Source: a phage | NCBI GenBank assembly: GCA_020773975.1 | Contig: GCA_020773975.1_3638.1 | Direction: 5' to 3' (one strand) | Length of the DNA: 64,000 nucleotides | Shown: in pieces, positions 9,327-48,660 of the stretch | Layout of the letters: each line of letters opens with the position of its first letter | How positions within the stretch are numbered: position 1 is the stretch's first letter | The notes under the pieces: model-generated | Told to the model about the DNA's origin: nothing | The model's database searches: none | The model's input: the letters and a program-made list of their open reading frames with translations, nothing else | Made by a program: the position numbers and the translations under genes

Positions 9327-9644
9327 CATCAGTTCAGAGAGTTCGTTACGCTCTCCCGCACCATTACGTGCATAGCCACAAGATTTCTCCTGTGGGTCGG
9401 ACTATCTCATCCTCCTGATATTAAGGAGGCCTCCCGTTTCGACCGCACTTGCTGGCCTACTCTACTCGCTTTCACATTACTAGTGTGCTTTCGATAGTCT
9501 CTGAACGTTCATCCCATAGGGATGCTTCGCTGCGGATTAGCATATTGAACTTTTGCTACTTTTACGTATAAAAGCCAGCTTAGCCTTCCCGTCAATTAGA
9601 GAGGTTTTCGACATGCATTACTGCATGAAGCCACAATGTTATTT
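9327..9644 (-). ncRNA. putative self-splicing group I intron in the DNA polymerase gene (no ORF)
   Basis: 318 nt between codon His (9645-9647) and codon Asp (9324-9326); joining gives ...VIYYH|DEIQV in frame; 5' exon ends in U, insert ends in G; GUGG 11 nt into the insert can pair with exon CCAU giving a U-G wobble at the splice site. Confidence 0.5.
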
Positions 9645-12056
9645 ATGGTAGTAGATAACCCTCCTGACACCTTGGTCGTACCATCCCCATTTCACCAATT
9701 CCCAATGGAACAGGACTCCCATGAGGTCAAACAATGAAGCACCACCGTTTTGTTGGTAAGCATTCAGCAGAGAATGTTTAGAACGAGTCCAAATTTTACG
9801 CCCGTCCATGCCTGGAATATAGCGTCTCCCATTTGCCTCCCAGAATTTTTCCAACCACTCCCTACGCATTTTCAACCCGAAGTTACTATCCCAGAATGCA
9901 TCTATTACAGCCTGTGCTCTATTAAGGGGGATACCCAGCATTGCGGCTATCTTAGGAGCTTGTGCTCCATACATAATTCCATACGTAACCCCCTTTCCTC
10001 CAGAGCGTGTTACCTCCTTTCCTGCTGCTATTGTGTATGCTCTTGCGTTTCGTTCATGGGCATCCTCTTCCATCATGATACGTAAATACTCACCACCATC
10101 AAACTCAAAAGCCCCTGCCGCTGCAATCATACCTTCTAAGTTAGATCCATCACAACCCATCAGGTAGTAGCCTTCAGGGACTGTCCAAAGACCCCGCATT
10201 TCTTTTCCCAACAAAACCTTCGGATCAGGCTTGGGCATGTTTGCGCAAACAGTATGCTTGCACCTGCCCGTGTTAGTGATTCCAGAAAAACGTGCTGGAA
10301 GTTTTCCGTCAATGTCTAAACGAGGGTGATTTAATAACCCTGTATCCGTCTTATCCTCATCCATTGGGTCTAAAACAGATCGCCTGTTACGAAGTGATAG
10401 CCACTTAACAATCTGTTTTGCCATATGCACATCAATTTTCTCCAAATTTGGACACAGATGCCCAAAATTATCTTTTAATTGAGGAGATGTCGGTAACTGG
10501 CGTGCTTTACGCCGAAATTTCTTAAATATCTCTGAATAACCCCTTTCAGATGCATGGCGATGGTCAAACTTACGCTCTGAAATGTTGAATTTCTCATCTG
10601 AATCATTAAGGTAGTCAAGAATAAGAGATTTATACTCAGACTCTGCCAACTCTTCTATGTACTTCTTAACTAGTACATCAATTTCAGAATCTTCACGAGT
10701 CTTTTTAAATTGATCCTTAGTAACATCTTTTACGCGCCACAGTGTAGGTTTCCAACCAGCATCTTTGATCAAATATTTTTTAATATCATCCTGATTAGAG
10801 ATTTTCATTGGAACCATTAAATCTGGCATTTTTCTGTTTCGAAGGTCTTCTTTAGCCTTCTCTAGAAGATCCGGCGGTAAAGGTTCGAGTGTGTTCTCTT
10901 TGGTTCGCTGGGAACGAATGAAATCACCGTATAAAGCCGGATCTTCAATGCCATTCTGGATGCAATATCTCTCCCCTGCTGCACTTACATCCCCATTGCT
11001 CTTAAAAGCTGTTTTTGGTGGAGCTTTAAACTCCAGAGCTTCCCTGTTAACAGGATAGCCAAGTTTATATTCCAACCAATTCCACCCATGATGAGATATA
11101 TTACCCGCTGTGTCAAAAGGGTTAGCTGGGAATTTTGGTTGTTGAGATTTCGTCATCTCTTTTTTTGGAAGAAGTGGTTCTACCTCTTCTTCAATTTCTC
11201 GCATCATCTTATCTATGCGATCTCTTAATTTTTCTGCCTCCTCCCGATTAAAGTATACGCCTTGTATTTCTTGCTCTATCATCAAATAGTCTGTGAGCAT
11301 TCTCCTACGTAATGCATTTTTCCAATTAATCTGGTGCATCCCGTGAGGTTTATCAGTGTACATAAACTGCTTGTCATCAGGCCATCGCGTACCATTTGAC
11401 TCATCAATAAGAGCTTTCCACACAAGTTCGTTAATGATAACGTCTTCCCACACACGGTTTACATATTCCCACAATGGCTGATTACGCCAATCATCAATCT
11501 GCACTTTCTTGTTTGCTACACGATAACCCCATGCCAATAAGCCGTGTGGCCCAACCCTGTCACGTTTTCCTGTTACAGGGTTCAATACAGAATCTGGGCA
11601 GCCATTAGGCAATGGGCGATCTGGGTAAAGAACACGACTCATTGAAAGAGTGTCGTAAAGATTTACCTGTTTATTACCTATCGTCCCCATACATTTTAGG
11701 TCTTTGAACATGTCATATTCAATCCCAGAAAGTTTTTTCCACAGACGTAAATCATAGCCGAACAGGTTATGTATTGCTATCCCTCTTGGCTCGGTCTGCA
11801 ACCAAGAGTAAAAATCATCATAAGAAAGGATACGTAAATTAACACCTTCTTTGCTGCGTGCAAAATTAACTGCACTCTGGTATTCCTTGTGAGCAGGATC
11901 GAGAAACAACACCCAGTTATTTACAGCATATTCTTTAAAAAGTGTGCAGTGATATTTAGTTGCCTCTTCTAATAATCCGTCAGCTTCGTTATCTCCGACA
12001 AAAAGCCCTTTCATACTCCTCCTATTCAAGATGGGCTTGACTGTATCGTCGCCCAT
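9645..12056 (-). CDS. DNA polymerase, family A (T7 gp5-like), 5' exon
   Basis: N-terminal 3'-5' exo motif LFVGDNEADGLLEEATKYHC (T7 MIVSDIEANALLESVTKFHC as recalled); motif A GCDGSNLEGM; motif B RSGGKGVTYGIMYGA; ORF stops 2 codons after the expected motif-C His. Confidence 0.85.
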
Positions 12057-33442: not shown

Positions 33443-33479
33443 AATTTAACCACACAGGGAGGCTAACGCACGTAGTCTC

Positions 33480-33535
33480 CCATATGTCCCCATTTCAGGG
33501 ACATGGGTATGTCCCTGTTTTGGGGACACAATACT
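33480..33535. promoter_or_regulatory. cluster of GTCCC/GGGAC palindromes
   Basis: ATGTCCCCATTTCAGGGACATGGGTATGTCCCTGTTTTGGGGACAC: four half-sites forming two palindromes. Confidence 0.45.
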
Positions 33536-33539
33536 AACT

Positions 33540-33740
33540 GATCAAATTAAACTAACTTATAAGATCTATTAAATATAATACTACGTATTATAATACTATG
33601 ATCTATTTAATATAATATATTATACTACGTATAATATAATTTAATATGATCTAATATAATATAATATAAATTATATAATATAATTTAATATAATACTACG
33701 TATTATATATTATAATATATATATTATATAAAATTTATTT
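33540..33740. repeat. AT-rich iteron region (candidate origin of replication)
   Basis: About 200 bp of roughly 90 percent A+T with three copies of GATCTA(T)TTAATATAATA and three copies of ACTACGTAT. Confidence 0.6.
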
Positions 33741-33750
33741 AAAATACACT

Positions 33751-33895
33751 AAGTCTTGAAGAATGTCAAGACTTGATTTTAAATATTTTTGTTGATATGA
33801 TTCGATTGAGTCGAATCGTATGGTTCGATGATTTCGAATCATAGAGTTCATAGTGTTTTGCCTGAAAGTGTGAGTCGATGAGACTCTTCAGGCAA
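33751..33895. promoter_or_regulatory. series of perfect palindromes/hairpins
   Basis: AAGTCTTGA-AGAATG-TCAAGACTT (33751-33774), GATTCGA-TTGAG-TCGAATC, TTCGAATC repeats, GCCTGAA...GAGTC-GATGA-GACTC...TTCAGGC. Confidence 0.5.
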
Positions 33896-34183
33896 TACGT
33901 GAGTGTGTAAGATGCTCACTGCGCTGATAGCTTGTGACCATCTAACCCTCATGAGCCATTCTGAGATAAACCCACATCAACAAACCCTACAGGTTTGTCT
34001 CTGTGTGTTGATCTCAATCATGGATTCGGGTTGTCACAGGTCACTATGTGACTCTGTGTGTGGGGGATTTTGAATGTGTACCGGAGCATGGCGCACAGGA
34101 CTGGTTCATCTGTCTGTCTCAACTGGGGCGCGGCGGGTGTCAAGGTTTAGTTTTACGTTTGTTTGGGTGTGGAGGAGAGTTTT

Positions 34184-34501
34184 ATGGCCTACGATGAAAA
34201 TTCTATCCGTGTGCTGTCACCTGAGGATATCAAACAACGATTTGACTGGGTACGCATCGGGGATTTGGTTCACGAATATAACTTACCTGTGGATTGGGTC
34301 AGACGTGGTTTTGAAGCGTGCTGGAGGTTAGACATCGATCCTGATTATTTTATCAACAAGTACATCCTCAAGCAGGATGTTGATCCTGTACCTGATTTTG
34401 AGGCTGTTTTTAAGGAGATTGTTATGGAGTCTCGATTCAAGGATCAGGTATGCACTCGGCAGTCTCAAAAACGCACCTACGAATCAGATTTGCAAATGTA
34501 G
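34184..34501 (+). CDS. hypothetical protein
   Basis: ATG at 34184 preceded by GGAGGAGAG; the ORF-track start at 34163 is TTG. Confidence 0.5.
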   Translation: MAYDENSIRVLSPEDIKQRFDWVRIGDLVHEYNLPVDWVRRGFEACWRLDIDPDYFINKYILKQDVDPVPDFEAVFKEIVMESRFKDQVCTRQSQKRTYESDLQM

Positions 34502-36262: not shown

Positions 36263-37087
36263 ATGACAAGTATTTTACACACGACAGGTATTTTACCACA
36301 CTATCAGAAGGACTATTCTTTCCCTGATTTCTCTGGGGATATGTTGCAAATATACGACAAAGTGCAAGGCGAAGTGTCGGAGCTACAGTTTAGTTCAGAC
36401 CCTGATGATGAGCAAGAGTTTGATAAACAGATTTGTCGTGTAGAAAACGAGCTTATAGAGCTACAATCATTAGCCAAATCAACAGATATCGAAGACTTAA
36501 GGCGATACGTCGAGAATCTTGAAAATTTAGTGTTCGGGCTTTCGCAAGCTATTATAAACATTGGTGAAATTGCTAAAATTGCCTCTGACAAGTTGCCAGA
36601 CAACGCAGAAGATATTGAAGAAGCGTTGCAGAATATCTGCTATGAAGGAAGTTCTGCTCTCGGTTGTGAATGTAATCTAGGAAATGCTCTTGAAGAACGT
36701 GGGTGGAGCCTAGCCCAAAAAACTTTTGTTTATCTTGTTATTGGTGGTGAGTTCCCACGACTTTTACAACTTAATGCCCTTTTTGGAAACAGTCAGAGCG
36801 ATAATATTGCATTAGGTATTGATGGTTGGTTCTGCTTAAGAGGTAAAGAATTAACATTTTGTCGTGGCGATGATGTGTTAATTCTCAATGCTTCTAAACC
36901 TGGTGTTGGAATAACAGTAAGACTTAATGGTAAGTCCACTAATTTCCACACCACAGAATTGACAGATATTTTTATGGACATATTCGATCCTACAGAAGAC
37001 GAAATTCTTATGTATGAAATGACCAGTGGAAAAAGGTATGATATTTTGTTGTGGAGAAATATTTTCGGTAAGAAGAAAAGTTTATAG
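36263..37087 (+). CDS. hypothetical protein
   Basis: 274-aa acidic ORF. Confidence 0.5.
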   Translation: MTSILHTTGILPHYQKDYSFPDFSGDMLQIYDKVQGEVSELQFSSDPDDEQEFDKQICRVENELIELQSLAKSTDIEDLRRYVENLENLVFGLSQAIINIGEIAKIASDKLPDNAEDIEEALQNICYEGSSALGCECNLGNALEERGWSLAQKTFVYLVIGGEFPRLLQLNALFGNSQSDNIALGIDGWFCLRGKELTFCRGDDVLILNASKPGVGITVRLNGKSTNFHTTELTDIFMDIFDPTEDEILMYEMTSGKRYDILLWRNIFGKKKSL

Positions 37088-37114
37088 TATGATATTTTAT
37101 CGCTGATATTTGTT

Positions 37115-37142
37115 TTCCCTGTGATATTTTTGTCACAGGGAA
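37115..37142 (+). other. perfect 10-bp hairpin
   Basis: TTCCCTGTGA-TATTTTTG-TCACAGGGAA directly after the preceding stop; no U-tract. Confidence 0.4.
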
Positions 37143-37359
37143 AGTTTCAACAACAGATATTTTCTTGATACTTTAAAACTCTACCAGAATTTAAAATTCT
37201 GTAAATTTAGAAAACTATTACTTATAAGCGTTTCGACACAATTTTGTTATGAAAGCCTTGTTTTTATATAAAAACCTGTTTTAGCATGAGTGGTAGGATC
37301 ACACTCCATACTACCTTTATTCCTACAGATGAGCACCTCCATGTCCGAAAACTCGGTTC

Positions 37360-44457: not shown

Positions 44458-44649
44458 ATGGATGTATCACAAGTTAGAAAGGTATTAGCAGCGTTACGCT
44501 ATCACAATTATAGCAAGGTGAAGAATGATCCTGATTATGTTGATTCCAGCTTGGAGGAAGACACCTTGCAAGCTATAAGCCATATGCAGGAATTGCTTAA
44601 GCGTATGACAGAGAAGAACAGATCTGATTATATAGGTGAAGAGATTTAA
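44458..44649 (+). CDS. hypothetical protein
   Basis: AAGGAG SD; last ORF of the cassette. Confidence 0.45.
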   Translation: MDVSQVRKVLAALRYHNYSKVKNDPDYVDSSLEEDTLQAISHMQELLKRMTEKNRSDYIGEEI

Positions 44650-44682
44650 TCTCTTACAACCGCACAAAGTAAAATTGTACAA

Positions 44683-44709
44683 GGGGCGCATTAAGCGCCC
44701 TTTATTTTT
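44683..44709 (+). terminator. rho-independent terminator closing the small-ORF cassette
   Basis: GGGCGC-ATTAA-GCGCCC followed by TTTATTTTT. Confidence 0.7.
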
Positions 44710-44911
44710 GCCCTAACAAGCATGATAAGTTTTATCTATCAAAACACCACACAGAAAAAAGTGAATAAAACGCGGTATCGAGCTAAACGAGGGTAGGCAG
44801 TACAACGGCAAGGGTAAACAATTAAGGCCGTTATAACGCGATTTAGGCCGCTTAAAATCGATCCCCATCACGAACAACCCCCATAATCTGACCAAAACGA
44901 CACAACATGAC

Positions 44912-45000
44912 TTAAATGATAACCATTCTCAACAACATAAGAATTTTTATGCAATTTTAGTGAATATCTATTTAAATGATAATGACTCTCAACAACAAAA
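44912..45000. repeat. two direct repeats of about 29 bp
   Basis: TTAAATGATAACCATTCTCAACAACATAA (44912-44940) and TTTAAATGATAATGACTCTCAACAACAAAA (44971-45000). Confidence 0.55.
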
Positions 45001-45092
45001 TAACACGACCGAAGCGATTTAATCGCCTATCACAAAACAAATCAATTGTAAAGAACAATTTAAAAGCTGCGTAAGTGGCGCGACCGTAGGGA

Positions 45093-45320
45093 GCGACACA
45101 ATAACGCAGTAGTAACCCCTCCCCCTCACTCCTTACAGTCGCCCGGTATCGGGATAGCGTTATTATGTCGCTACGCGCCAACGCGTTAACAATTTTGCAA
45201 AGAAGCCTGCTTTGCAGGTTAAGCGCATTGCGCTTAATCGCGTAGCGACTATGTGAAATTATAACAGTTAAATTATTAATAAAATCTTGCAAAATTGTTA
45301 ACCTACTGCGTTATTGTGTC
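45093..45320. repeat. nested inverted-repeat element (18-bp perfect terminal inverted repeats around about 190 bp)
   Basis: GACACAATAACGCAGTAG (45095-45112) is the exact reverse complement of CTACTGCGTTATTGTGTC (45303-45320); inside, GTCGCTACGCG / CGCGTAGCGAC plus the palindromes ACGCGT, GTTAAC, CCTGC...GCAGG, AAGCGCATTGCGCTT. Confidence 0.6.
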
Positions 45321-45433
45321 CTGTATATAATTCGTTAAATTAACCAAATTAATCCCCGATTATTACGCAGTAAATCACCTGCTTTTAACCCTGTTAATGT
45401 GCCACGTAGTGATCTGCTATCTTGCCCAGGGAT

Positions 45434-45452
45434 AACCGCATGGCATGCGGTT
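45434..45452. repeat. perfect 9-bp-arm palindrome
   Basis: AACCGCATG-G-CATGCGGTT. Confidence 0.55.
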
Positions 45453-45530
45453 AAATGCTGTTAAGTGCTTGAAATGCCAGATCAATTTGGTCACTGCGTG
45501 ATTATGATTGCGACAATAATTTGCTATTTA

Positions 45531-45560
45531 TTTGTTATAATTTGTTATAATTTGTTAAAC
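45531..45560. repeat. tandem 10-mer repeat (3 copies)
   Basis: TTTGTTATAA TTTGTTATAA TTTGTTAAAC. Confidence 0.6.
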
Positions 45561-45659
45561 ACTCTTTTATCTTTTCTCTTACATTTTCGTTATATTTGAT
45601 TTGTTATCGTTTTCCCTCATTTCGCTTCGTTATTGAAAACAAGAATTATTATCATTGAT

Positions 45660-45960
45660 ACGCCTTAACAGGCTGGCGGGTCTGTTAGTGGTCTGGCTCT
45701 CTGTGTGGTCATGTTGTTATTGGTTGTGATAGCTTGGTTTTATTGTCTGGCCTGTTATTGTTAGCTTGCTTATTGTTGTGTGGTGTATGTATTAGTTAGC
45801 TAGTACATTAGCTGGTGCGCATAACGTGTATTATGTTAAATCAGGTGGCCCACAAGTAAGGTGGCTTGTCAATAACAATAAGTGCTATGTGCGGTAGTCT
45901 GGCCCATCAGTGTGCCCCTTTGTTGTGTGGTGCTCTCAGTGTGTGACCTGTCTGCTGTGT
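45660..45960 (+). other. strand-biased G+T-rich non-coding tract
   Basis: Top strand almost devoid of A and C runs; recurring TGTGTGG/CTCTGTGTGG; ends with a diverged fourth copy of the GTTCTCGATC repeat at 45983. Confidence 0.5.
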
Positions 45961-46190
45961 GCGCTGCGCCAAATCTCGAGCGGTTCTCGATCACAATAGC
46001 TGTAGGATATTTTCAAAACATCCGAATTTCCATCGACACCCCCAGCTCATCTGCCTGTCACCTCTGAGATAAAGCTGTAGATATTTTCACTCCTCACATC
46101 ATGCACAAGTTAATACATGCAAGTCTTTACAGACAGGGGTGGGTGGTGTAAAATACCTGTGCCAACAGTACAAAACACAGAGGAGGTTTA

Positions 46191-47651
46191 GTGGCAAAAC
46201 AGTTCTTTGACAAACATTACATGGAAACGCATTTTGTAGAGAAACCTCTGCATCGCCTGAACTTTACAGATTTAGAAGGAATGAGGTTTGGCAAGATAAC
46301 GGTGCACAAACTTAACAGAAGAGAGGATAAGTCTTTTGTGTGGTGGTGTACGTGTGATTGTAACCCATCCAGATATTTTATGGTTGTGCCTTACTCACTT
46401 AAAACAGGGGTGACAACATCTTGTGGTTGCAATTATAAAACTAATGGAGGGAATATACATGAAACACTCCAAGAGTTTCAAAAGAAAGTTGGTGGTGATT
46501 GGGAGATTATCTCATACCAAGGTAGAAAGCACGATTGTGTTGCCAAATGTACTATGTGTGGGAGTATTGTCACCAAACAAGGTGGCTCATTTATCTGCGG
46601 TGTGACGTGCCATTGCACTGATAAAAGAATAAAGAGGCGTGATGATATTTTGCATCTTGCGGGGTACAGTCTGATCAAAGAAGAGAAAGTTCAACAGCAG
46701 AATGGTGAATATATAATGCACTTGCGCTGTAAATCTTGTGGTGTTAAGAAACTGACGCGAAACACGGAGTTAAGGGATTTAAAGCCATGCCTGTGTAGAG
46801 GCGACCACACCAACAATGGGAAACCTTGCGCCATTTACCTGCTTTCACATAAAGATGGTAAGTATTGTAAGATTGGTAGGTCTTATAGCCCCTCCTCAAG
46901 ATTACGTATGATTAATGGTTCTGGTGGCGACTTTATATTGGAGCATGTTTGGTGGACACCTAACTATCACTACGCATCTGTGCTGGAGACAACACTCCAC
47001 AGGGAATTTTCTGAGCATCGCTTTGACGCTGGTGGTTTCGATGGGAGCACAGAGTGTTTCTACATAAAGCCTGACAAATTGGCAAAAGGAATATCTGAGA
47101 TAGTCGCCAAGTTGGTTGGGGATTACAAACCTGAAGATGGGGTGTTGACAAAAGATGTGAAGATAAGGAATAACTACAAGAACAGCGGTATGATTGTGAA
47201 GTCTAGGAGTTATCACTTCAAAGAGTCAGATGTGTGTTTGTGGATACCTTATAAAGGGTATCTCAGAAAGAAGAGATCCCCATTCTCCTCTTGGGAGATG
47301 GCAGAAGAGTGTCACTATTTAGCTGCAAATGTGCAGCCTTCCAAAAACTTAGATAGGTTTAAAATTTATGATGTGGATGGGGTTACTGACTCCATAGCAG
47401 GTTGGTCAAGGAGAACTGGAATCCCTGCTCAGACACTTACGTGGAGAATGCAACGCACAGGCATGACAATGAAAGAGGCGATTAATTATTGCAGACCAGA
47501 CACTGTTATTTGGTGTGGCGGGAAAATGGTTAAGAAGAGAGATCTTAAAAGCATTATCGGTGTTTCTTGGGAGTCGGTTTATACAGCATCCAGAAAAAGC
47601 AAGAAGTCCCCAGAACATATTATAGAAGAAATACTGAAAAGGGCCACTTAA
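46191..47651 (+). CDS. T5orf172 (GIY-YIG superfamily)-like protein with N-terminal Cys-rich Zn-finger repeats and C-terminal HTH-like module
   Basis: GTG start 4 nt after AGGAGG; core AIYLLSHKDGKYCKIGRSYSPSSRLRMING ... EHVWW ... ETTLHREF ... GSTECFYI; several CxxC/CxC clusters upstream; C-terminal GVTDSIAGWSRRTGIPAQTLTWRMQRTGMTMKEAI. Confidence 0.55.
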   Translation: MAKQFFDKHYMETHFVEKPLHRLNFTDLEGMRFGKITVHKLNRREDKSFVWWCTCDCNPSRYFMVVPYSLKTGVTTSCGCNYKTNGGNIHETLQEFQKKVGGDWEIISYQGRKHDCVAKCTMCGSIVTKQGGSFICGVTCHCTDKRIKRRDDILHLAGYSLIKEEKVQQQNGEYIMHLRCKSCGVKKLTRNTELRDLKPCLCRGDHTNNGKPCAIYLLSHKDGKYCKIGRSYSPSSRLRMINGSGGDFILEHVWWTPNYHYASVLETTLHREFSEHRFDAGGFDGSTECFYIKPDKLAKGISEIVAKLVGDYKPEDGVLTKDVKIRNNYKNSGMIVKSRSYHFKESDVCLWIPYKGYLRKKRSPFSSWEMAEECHYLAANVQPSKNLDRFKIYDVDGVTDSIAGWSRRTGIPAQTLTWRMQRTGMTMKEAINYCRPDTVIWCGGKMVKKRDLKSIIGVSWESVYTASRKSKKSPEHIIEEILKRAT

Positions 47652-48336
47652 GGCCCGTTGTGTTGTTGGTATGGGACACCCGACTTACCATTGACCAGGT
47701 AAACCAATATCAAGGCCAAATTCGTGACACTCATCCCAGTCAAGACTTTGATTCCAGTTTGTAACTGTCCTCTCTGTGTGGTGGGTGTATGATGCTCTCC
47801 GTGACTGCTTTGGCATCTTTTTTGTCTGAGATTTCCCGAAAAGAGGTGTGTTGTCATTGAGTCTTCCGGCAGCCTTTTCACCCTTTTTGACTTGTCTCCC
47901 ACGGGCATTCCACTGCTCCAGTGTCCTGTAACACATAAAATCATTCTCCTGTAATATCTGGTGTGGGGATAATGACAGATTGTACCAGAGGTGTCAAGTC
48001 TGTTGACCAGAGTGTGTGGGAGGGGTGTCGCTATAAAAAATTTTTGGAGAGCTTTCTATGGTTTATTCTGTAGCTTCAGACAGGCCATAAACCCAGATGT
48101 GACGGGGCTTTCAGCTATGTTGTGTGTTGATCGCAAATAAGGATAAAATAATCAATATAAATGCAGATAAATGTTGTTTTATTGTGTTTGTGTAACTGGG
48201 GTGTCATGTCTTGATAGGTTATGACCTGTACATATTTTGTACAGAAGTGTGGTGTGCAGAGTGGAGGTGGCAATTCCCCAGACGGGGGTGGGGGTAGGTC
48301 ATGGTGGAGAGCAGGGGCATGGTTAGCCCCATATGA

Positions 48337-48660
48337 TCAGGGTTGTGCGTCTGTTTGTTTGAACTGGTCTTTTGAACGTATTACATAACCACAACCATAT
48401 TTTCTCAGCCAGACCAGTTCCCATGGACTATCACTCAGGTTATTCCTGTTTATCTCTTTTAGCTGGGCAACCGCATCGTCCCATGATGTGACTTCGAGAT
48501 AACCGATAAGACTGTCCTCTCCAAAATCTCCATAATCAAATGTACATTTGACCTTGGCGATGAACTCTGTCTGTGGGTTTGTTGGTTTTACAAAAACCCA
48601 GTGGAAGATTTGTTCTGTGCAGTGCTCATTCACCCATCTGATTTGTGTGGTCATAATCAC
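48337..48660 (-). CDS. hypothetical protein
   Basis: 107-aa ORF. Confidence 0.5.
   Translation of the reverse strand: MIMTTQIRWVNEHCTEQIFHWVFVKPTNPQTEFIAKVKCTFDYGDFGEDSLIGYLEVTSWDDAVAQLKEINRNNLSDSPWELVWLRKYGCGYVIRSKDQFKQTDAQP

Follow-up and report, generated by a model that had tools for sequence, protein, structure and literature searches.

A probable T5orf172-type homing-endonuclease gene at the border of a conserved non-coding locus in Avunavirus-like phages

Introduction

Homing-endonuclease genes (HEGs) with a T5orf172 catalytic domain have been described in ICP1, T5-like phages, Plateaulakeviruses and Vibrio phages (Barth, Dunham & Seed 2023, PMC10448857). In that collection 87% of them carry at least one zinc finger of the CapR-like, DUF723 or DUF4397 type, with the pattern CxxC...CxC and often repeated, and most are free-standing, clustered beside essential genes and located at the boundaries of exchanged sequence (PMC10448857). 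Proteins of this kind can also serve other ends: the T5orf172 domain of ICP1 Odn cuts the replication origin of a satellite, and PLE CapR uses a HEG-type zinc finger as a repressor (PMC8263062, PMC8096241, PMC10448857). Here we describe a gene for a 486-aa protein of this family, located at 46191-47651 of a 64,000-nucleotide stretch of phage DNA (GenBank assembly GCA_020773975.1, contig GCA_020773975.1_3638.1; the whole stretch is called the window below), next to a locus of about 1.5 kb free of open reading frames (ORFs), referred to as the non-coding region (NCR). In our view, this gene is likely to be a free-standing HEG that belongs, within the GIY-YIG superfamily, to the T5orf172 branch. 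The gene is optional and probably mobile, and its fit to the published description of T5orf172 HEGs places it among that known kind.

The likeness to the HEGs of PMC10448857 extends from the protein, which combines a T5orf172 core with three Cys4 zinc modules, two of them of the CxxC...CxC pattern, to the free-standing and patchy occurrence of the gene beside an apparently indispensable locus at a boundary of exchange, and to the origin of its homologues, which were found in the same groups, namely the Plateaulakevirus phiA009 and Vibrio phages of the eugene/helene type. However, its neighbour is a non-coding locus and not an essential protein-coding gene, its first zinc module has the pattern CxC...CxC, and it has two additional helical modules at the C-terminus, in common with a PHROG that carries the annotation HNH endonuclease. 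Vequintavirinae and Stephanstirmvirinae, which are used in phage therapy work, are not named in PMC10448857, and the gene adds one lineage and these two subfamilies to the range of T5orf172 HEGs. Like the T4-type GIY-YIG HEGs, I-TevI and SegA-G, the protein joins a catalytic domain to separate DNA-binding modules, including zinc finger and helix-turn-helix (HTH) elements, and its gene is a free-standing cassette between other genes, with flanks that may have been co-converted. Unlike them, it matches the T5orf172/MUG113 profiles and not Pfam GIY-YIG, which sets it in a different branch of the superfamily, and its catalytic domain is central, behind an N-terminal zinc array, whereas theirs is N-terminal. 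Odn and CapR demonstrate that the family can be turned onto cis-acting non-coding DNA, but the RepA_N domain of Odn is absent from the 486-aa protein, and there is no sign of a satellite target in our case; the gene is optional, and the adjacent locus is the phage's own.

A zinc-finger protein with a T5orf172 core

The gene and its product are organized as follows.

46180-46186, plus strand: ribosome-binding site GAGGAGG of the nuclease gene
46191-47651, plus strand: T5orf172-family nuclease gene, 486 aa, GTG start
aa ~25-205: zinc modules, with the Cys4 sites C55xC57...C78xC80, C120xxC123...C140xC142 and C180xxC183...C200xC202
aa 211-305: T5orf172/GIY-YIG core
aa 390-486: two helical HTH-like modules

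Two Pfam profiles matched aa 215-304 of the protein above their curated cut-offs, MUG113 (PF13455; 30.7 bits, cut-off 22.3) and T5orf172 (PF10544; 28.4 bits, cut-off 20), and a homing-endonuclease family of PHROGs matched over the same stretch. The relatives P0006, P0009, P0013 and P0041 likewise match MUG113/T5orf172 profiles, and the core of the protein has the alpha/beta fold of the GIY-YIG type. In an alignment of 16 family members, which are 23-95% identical, the core residues Y216, K227, G229, R237, E266, H270, G285, E288 and F290 were invariant, as were the twelve zinc-ligand cysteines of the three Cys4 sites, of which the second and the third follow the CxxC...CxC pattern exactly. Closer to the C-terminus, aa 374-469 matched the HNH-annotated PHROG, a similarity that we read as a shared DNA-binding tail. 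The comparison with the 95%-identical copies described below gave a dN/dS of 0.12 for the gene, and the protein is under purifying selection. What the first-pass annotation had said about this reading frame was borne out: the ORF is real; the Cys-cluster repeats correspond to the three conserved Cys4 sites; the core residues that it had quoted (all those listed above except G285) belong to the invariant ones; the C-terminal HTH-like module appears as two helical modules; and the gene is located at the switch from plus- to minus-strand transcription.

An exhaustive profile-free search with the 486-aa protein returned 8164 proteins at E <= 0.001. Most of these matches cover the first Cys module of about 60 aa alone, which is repeated 3-11 times per protein, and about a dozen proteins align over the full length, with 23-31% identity. 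No NCBIfam model matched the protein, the PADLOC models of defence proteins gave no match at E <= 0.1, and sequence and profile searches against the PDB returned chance-level matches only. Pfam, NCBIfam and PHROGs revealed neither RepA_N nor any other initiator or origin-binding domain in it, and no paralogue of the gene is present in the window.

The gene is part of an optional cassette

The source of the window is an Avunavirus-like E. coli myovirus (Vequintavirinae). Its nearest records are Av-05 and the 18-1-2, 19-1-2, 24-2-1 and TH18 group, with flanks about 86-92% identical overall in matches that span only about half of the 3.8-kb query. Comparison with these genomes delimited an optional cassette with its own signals.

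46144-47683, plus strand: optional cassette of 1.54 kb, consisting of 5' leader, ribosome-binding site, ORF and terminator
46134-46144: G-rich block GGGGTGGGTGG, just after which lies the left junction of the cassette
47684/47685: right junction of the cassette, at the end of the gene for an 83-aa protein
46126-46154, plus strand: sigma-70-like promoter TTTACA-17-TAAAAT, with a -10 box that belongs to the cassette and a -35 box that belongs to the conserved flank
47641-47656: bidirectional terminator hairpin, overlapping the nuclease stop codon and serving the nuclease gene and the convergent 83-aa gene

The cassette is absent from Av-05, 18-1-2, 19-1-2, 24-2-1 and TH18. In its place, blastn comparison revealed unrelated sequence, 190 bp long in 18-1-2 and 378 bp long in Av-05, and a search of seven genomes at the protein and nucleotide levels found no gene remnants in the empty alleles. 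Homology of the 5' leader (46144-46190) to the filler of the empty alleles was considered and rejected, as the match is confined to the G-rich block (22 nt) and the remainder shows no more than chance similarity (p ~0.96). Three metagenomic Avunavirus contigs (L003-L005) contain the cassette with 92-97% identity, and encode a 95%-identical protein in the same synteny. No homologue of the nuclease was found to be encoded by an E. coli phage among 50,697 records. Over about 0.5 kb on each side of the cassette, the carriers are more alike to each other than to the gene-less genomes; at 45601-45800, for instance, the identity is 90% among carriers and 72-76% to gene-less genomes. This is the likeness that co-conversion of flanking DNA would give, with which it is compatible without being a proof of it.

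Several short repeats were noticed around the insertion site. In the empty alleles (L002 6189-6378 and L001 5590-5967), the G-rich block is duplicated, as GGGGTGGGGTAA and GACAGGGGTGGGGTGTGGAAAA, with a spacing of about 150 bp, and the window has a single block, which resembles the second copy of the gene-less Avunavirus genomes. A comparable duplicated block, GGGTATAT/GGGTTATG, is present at the site in 4MG and FENT2. Just upstream of the cassette, the octamer GATATTTT occurs twice, at 46006-46013 and 46080-46087, as AGCTGTAG(G)ATATTTTCA, and the same motif, as (C/T)AGATATTTT, is found close to the right-hand end of the non-coding locus in L006, 4MG and phAPEC8. Elsewhere in the window, five plus-strand copies of the octamer are clustered at 36965-37163, a stretch of about 200 bp; four of these fall in 37040-37163, at the end of an ORF and in the intergenic region after it. 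The octamer may be a phage-specific regulatory or promoter element.

Family members in other phage lineages adjoin an ORF-free region

Two contigs related to Seunavirus and other Vequintavirinae, L006 and L015, encode proteins that are 49% and 47% identical to the 486-aa protein, respectively. The gene is lacking in all 80 of the 80 database relatives matched by the L006 contig, and in comparison with 4MG and FENT2 the two contigs have an extra 1.57-1.62 kb in place of 65-146 bp. As in the window, a G-rich block immediately precedes their left junction, and about 46 nt separate this junction from the start codon downstream. The Phapecoctavirus contig L048 shares 90-97% identity with phAPEC8 and TSP7_1; where these two have the first gene or genes after their long non-coding region, L048 has a family member of 28% identity (P0009). 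Homologues with 26-30% identity are present in the Vibrio phages eugene 12A10 and 1.161.O and in the Aeromonas phage phiA009, each followed directly by an annotation-free region of 1.4-1.6 kb, and in the eugene group the homology between related phages breaks at the nuclease homologue.

Every family member with readable surroundings (the window, L003, L004, L006, L015, L048, eugene 12A10, 1.161.O and phiA009) adjoins an ORF-free region of 1.4-1.9 kb. The contigs of P0006 and P0013 are too short to show their context and are outside this set. Adjacency was judged from annotated or called genes, as the measurement of ORF-free stretches was too noisy, with random ORFs of at least 60 aa breaking the regions up. 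The family-A DNA polymerase of the window is 85% identical to that of 4MG, 57% to those of rV5-like phages, about 52% to that of ICP1 and about 50% to those of eugene-type Vibrio phages. Between the loci of the window and those of L006 and L015, the nuclease gene is the only detectable similarity at the protein level.

The adjacent non-coding locus is conserved in many phages

To the left of the nuclease gene lies the NCR, which has the following features.

44650-46143: ORF-free locus (NCR), about 1.5 kb
44681-44703, plus strand: intrinsic terminator closing the upstream plus-strand block, conserved in phAPEC8 and annotated there as a terminator
about 44710-45060: A+C-rich left arm
44917-44931 and 44977-44991: Fur-box-like 7-1-7 palindromes TGATAACCATTCTCA and TGATAATGACTCTCA, inside a 60-bp direct repeat
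45095-45112/45303-45320: outer perfect inverted repeat of 18 nt
45185-45200/45287-45302: inner perfect inverted repeat of 16 nt, nested in the outer one
about 45670-45960: G+T-rich right arm
45813-45845: element of about 30 nt, TGGTGCGCATAACGTGTATTATGTTAAATCAGG (L006 2404-2434; L015 693-720; L010 4671-4643, minus strand)

The plus-strand block of small genes ends at 44649, and the minus-strand genes start right after the nuclease ORF. Since the left arm of the NCR is rich in A+C and the right arm in G+T, the strand composition switches near 45300-45450, and the cluster of inverted repeats occupies the centre, between the two arms. Homologous ORF-free regions were found in Av-05, 18-1-2, rV5, 4MG and FENT2 as well as in phAPEC8 and TSP7_1, the latter two being Stephanstirmvirinae; by sequence comparison, the NCR is conserved across Vequintavirinae and Stephanstirmvirinae. 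Its counterpart in rV5 is located at 104013-106618 (2.6 kb), and the rV5 genome paper draws a box labelled 'non-coding' (PMC3606486). In Bas54, another member of the Vequintavirinae, an intergenic region of about 2 kb between oppositely transcribed blocks took zero transposon insertions, and the authors of that screen suggest an important functional role for it (10.1101/2025.11.20.689424); we liken this region to the NCR by its similar placement only. The beginning of the NCR, about 137 nt long (window 44654-44786, comprising the terminator plus CACCACACAGAAAAAAGTGAATAAAACGCGGTATCGAGCTAA), is about 85% identical in 198 phage records, which include Phapecoctavirus, Justusliebigvirus and Klebsiella phages, and it is far better conserved than the remainder.

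The inverted-repeat region (45095-45320) folds with z = -6.2. The repeat arms consist of the core GACACAATAAC and a 7-nt extension, GCAGTAG in Avunavirus and ACGAGGG in Seunavirus, which within each genus is identical in both arms and thus covaries. The 118-bp segment bounded by the inner repeat is reversed in Av-05, and parts of it are reversed also in 18-1-2, L003 and L004. The element TGGTGCGCATAACGTGTATTATGTTAAATCAGG is invariant among the Avunavirus relatives, 93.5% identical in L006, present in L015 and 90% identical in rV5, where its orientation relative to the flanking gene blocks is opposite; across Avunavirus, the Seunavirus-like contigs and rV5, it is the best-conserved piece of the right arm. 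A search of 44600-48400 against Rfam, at gathering thresholds and at E <= 1, found no RNA family apart from one chance-level match, and no tRNA genes were found.

Sites resembling the Fur box are strongly over-represented in these loci. With a threshold of at least 12 of 14 matches to the 7-1-7 consensus TGATAATnATTATCA, 19 sites were present in eight ORF-free loci of enterobacterial, Vibrio and Aeromonas phages (window 44650-46143; L006 1208-2749; L007 4112-5622; L010 3514-6119; L012 4901-6305; L013 4620-6236; L014 4620-6268; L044 2410-4163), whereas dinucleotide shuffles gave an expectation of 0.36. One such site lies elsewhere in the window, in the remaining 60 kb. The best matches to the 19-nt Fur consensus, GAAAATGATAATGATTATC (L006 2219) and AATAATGATAATCGTTATC (L013 5833), agree with it at 17 of 19 positions each. 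Our literature search found no papers on Fur boxes in intergenic regions of lytic phages, and the paper on ICP1 packaging gave no clue to the identity of the NCR. An origin of replication, a packaging site and a Fur-bound regulatory region are possible roles of the NCR, which appears to matter more than the nuclease gene. With its Fur-box-like palindromes, the NCR suggests that this phage group may be linked to the iron status of the host, which can be tested.

Proposed homing and the alternative explanations

If the gene is a HEG, as we think likely, then its action could be pictured as follows. The nuclease gene would be transcribed early by the host RNA polymerase. In gene-less genomes, the zinc and helical modules of the protein would recognise a long, asymmetric sequence located at the G-rich block that borders the NCR, or close to it, and the GIY-YIG domain would nick or cut there. 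In a mixed infection, the break would be repaired from the carrier genome, and the cassette would be copied along with some flanking DNA. The target would lie inside an apparently indispensable cis-acting locus and would be hard to mutate away, which could account for the long association of the family with the NCR.

Several observations weigh against this picture, in which the nuclease activity, the target and the homing are inferred. The zinc modules of the protein did not match Pfam DUF723 or DUF4397 at E <= 1, in which it differs from the HEGs of PMC10448857. The nuclease copies of Avunavirus and the Seunavirus-like contigs are 47-49% identical, whereas their DNA polymerases are 85% identical, so a recent transfer between the two is not demonstrated; with the nuclease so much more diverged than the polymerase, its copies either evolve fast or were acquired separately. 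Moreover, the divergence of the gene among the carrier Avunavirus contigs is about that of the remaining genome, as vertical descent would give, and the constant adjacency to the NCR fits also a protein that works on the NCR.

That last possibility, namely that the protein is a domesticated or dedicated factor and not a selfish one, which binds the neighbouring NCR and nicks, cleaves or represses there, is in our view unlikely. Such a factor could, for instance, be a modulator of initiation, acting at an origin or a packaging site, or it could destroy this locus in competitors. The neighbourhood of all readable family members agrees with it, as do the Fur-box-like palindromes common to their ORF-free regions, the purifying selection on the protein, and the precedents of domesticated T5orf172 and CapR-type proteins (PMC10448857, PMC8263062). 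However, the NCR is conserved also in the gene-less Av-05, rV5, 4MG and phAPEC8 and in about 200 records, and thus the locus does not need the 486-aa protein. In addition, the origin-binding domain that one might look for, RepA_N or another, was not found, a patchy distribution at a single site is what selfish elements classically show, and the killing of competitors is not really distinct from homing. Quite improbable, as we see it, is that the gene is an accessory gene ancestral to this phage supergroup, at a recombination-prone border, repeatedly deleted and not actively mobile, whose nuclease serves perhaps in the degradation of host DNA. The large divergence between the copies of different lineages (47-49% and 28% identity) speaks for this view, the duplicated G-rich or GGGTATAT blocks around the empty sites could mediate deletions, inversions and indels are seen in the region, and T5orf172 genes occur in distant relatives, including ICP1 and the eugene-like Vibrio phages with their polymerases of about 50% identity. 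Yet the empty alleles contain 190-378 bp of unrelated filler and no trace of the gene, and many independent clean losses would be needed, in at least three lineages and with near-identical junctions. Also, in L006 and L015 similarity to the window was detectable for the nuclease gene but not for the early genes that flank it, which is unexpected for passive co-inheritance.

As a HEG, the gene itself is ordinary; what is unusual is the fidelity of its family to the border of a conserved and unexplained NCR. One could go further and regard the whole zinc-finger/T5orf172 lineage as a long-term specialist of one cis-acting element, homing on its border or acting on the locus directly, the element being the 1.5-2.6-kb ORF-free locus, with its covarying inverted repeats and palindromes of the Fur-box type, that is common to Vequintavirinae, Stephanstirmvirinae and the related Vibrio and Aeromonas myoviruses. 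We put this forward tentatively and hold both the specialization and this identity of the element to be rather doubtful. If it were true, the recognition site would pinpoint the functional core of a hitherto undescribed element, probably an essential one, which might serve as an origin, in packaging or in iron-responsive control. More generally, should the nuclease recognise the NCR, mapping its site would point to the functional core of this element, and the pairs of carrier and gene-less phages described here would offer a ready system for the study of homing on non-coding DNA.

Flanking sequences and the convergent 83-aa gene

To the right of the cassette, the following features were found.

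47685-47936, minus strand: gene for an 83-aa protein, full-length match to phrog_25175 (E = 7e-38)
47937-48336: G+T-rich intergenic stretch upstream of the 83-aa gene
47997 to 47969, minus strand: promoter-like site upstream of the 83-aa gene

The first-pass annotation had taken the nuclease gene for the only one in a 3.6-kb interval, which does not hold: the 83-aa gene is real. It carries an annotation in Av-05 and 18-1-2, is intact in five of five related genomes, with 93-98% identity, and has a dN/dS of 0.11-0.18. The protein starts with YRTLEQWNARGRQVKKGEKA, a motif with sub-threshold matches to Rad4 BHD_2 and, at E = 0.0023, to the N-terminal domain of ArdC; as far as such matches can tell, this small protein may bind DNA. 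The lone gene had further been described as framed by two G+T-rich non-coding islands, the left of which is the right arm of the NCR, whereas the right one holds the 83-aa gene. The G+T excess of the plus strand is present on both sides, with a GC skew of +0.20 to +0.24 and an AT skew of -0.35 to -0.41 at 45550-46000, and a GC skew of about +0.37 to +0.39 at 47950-48400, but the image of two islands framing a single gene is not supported.

Much the same applies to the related motif pairs that had been reported in the two flanks. An exact 13-mer, CTCTCTGTGTGGT, is indeed shared by both, with 45697 and 47770 as its sole positions in the 64 kb (tolerating one mismatch gives 4 matches, where 0.22 would be expected), but it does not make a specific framing pair, and the second pair is a weak match of 71%. 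Both right-hand motifs (47770 and 47793) lie inside the coding sequence of the 83-aa protein, and the left 13-mer is removed in Av-05 by a 47-bp deletion. Binding or cleavage sites of the nuclease, as which these motifs had been proposed, were therefore rejected, one copy being coding and the other dispensable in Av-05. TGTGTGG is in local excess, as the 1.15 kb of flank contain 5 copies where 0.29 would be expected, and the flank motifs reflect this general excess and not a specific pair of sites framing the gene.

The view of the gene as a self-contained inserted module of the homing-endonuclease type withstood the analysis, in agreement with its domains and fold, the junctions between presence and absence, its own -10 box and terminator, and its sporadic occurrence at the same landmark, the right border of the NCR, in Seunavirus-like and Phapecoctavirus genomes. 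A comparison of presence and absence across related phages had been suggested as a check, and a gene and flanks universally conserved in syntenic position would have spoken for the opposite; since the closest isolates are without the gene, such universal conservation does not apply to it. The alternative of a genome-organising locus fits the adjacent conserved NCR better and the nuclease gene less.

Other features of the window

A group I intron (Rfam RF00028, 81 bits) at 9327-9654 on the minus strand, apparently without an ORF, splits the family-A DNA polymerase exactly at motif C: an 805-aa ORF ends with ...VIYYH, and the one after it reads (M)DEIQVQV... In 18-1-2, too, the match to the polymerase is split in two. 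A second ORF-free stretch of the window is located at 33443-34185. It contains, at 33540-33740, an extremely A+T-rich array of about 200 bp composed of repeats of the TATAAT/ACTACGTATTATA type, followed by several hairpins, and the array is flanked by inverted one-mismatch copies, at 33450 (minus strand) and 34052 (plus strand), of a 12-mer from the motif pairs discussed above. The stretch could be an origin or a promoter cluster.

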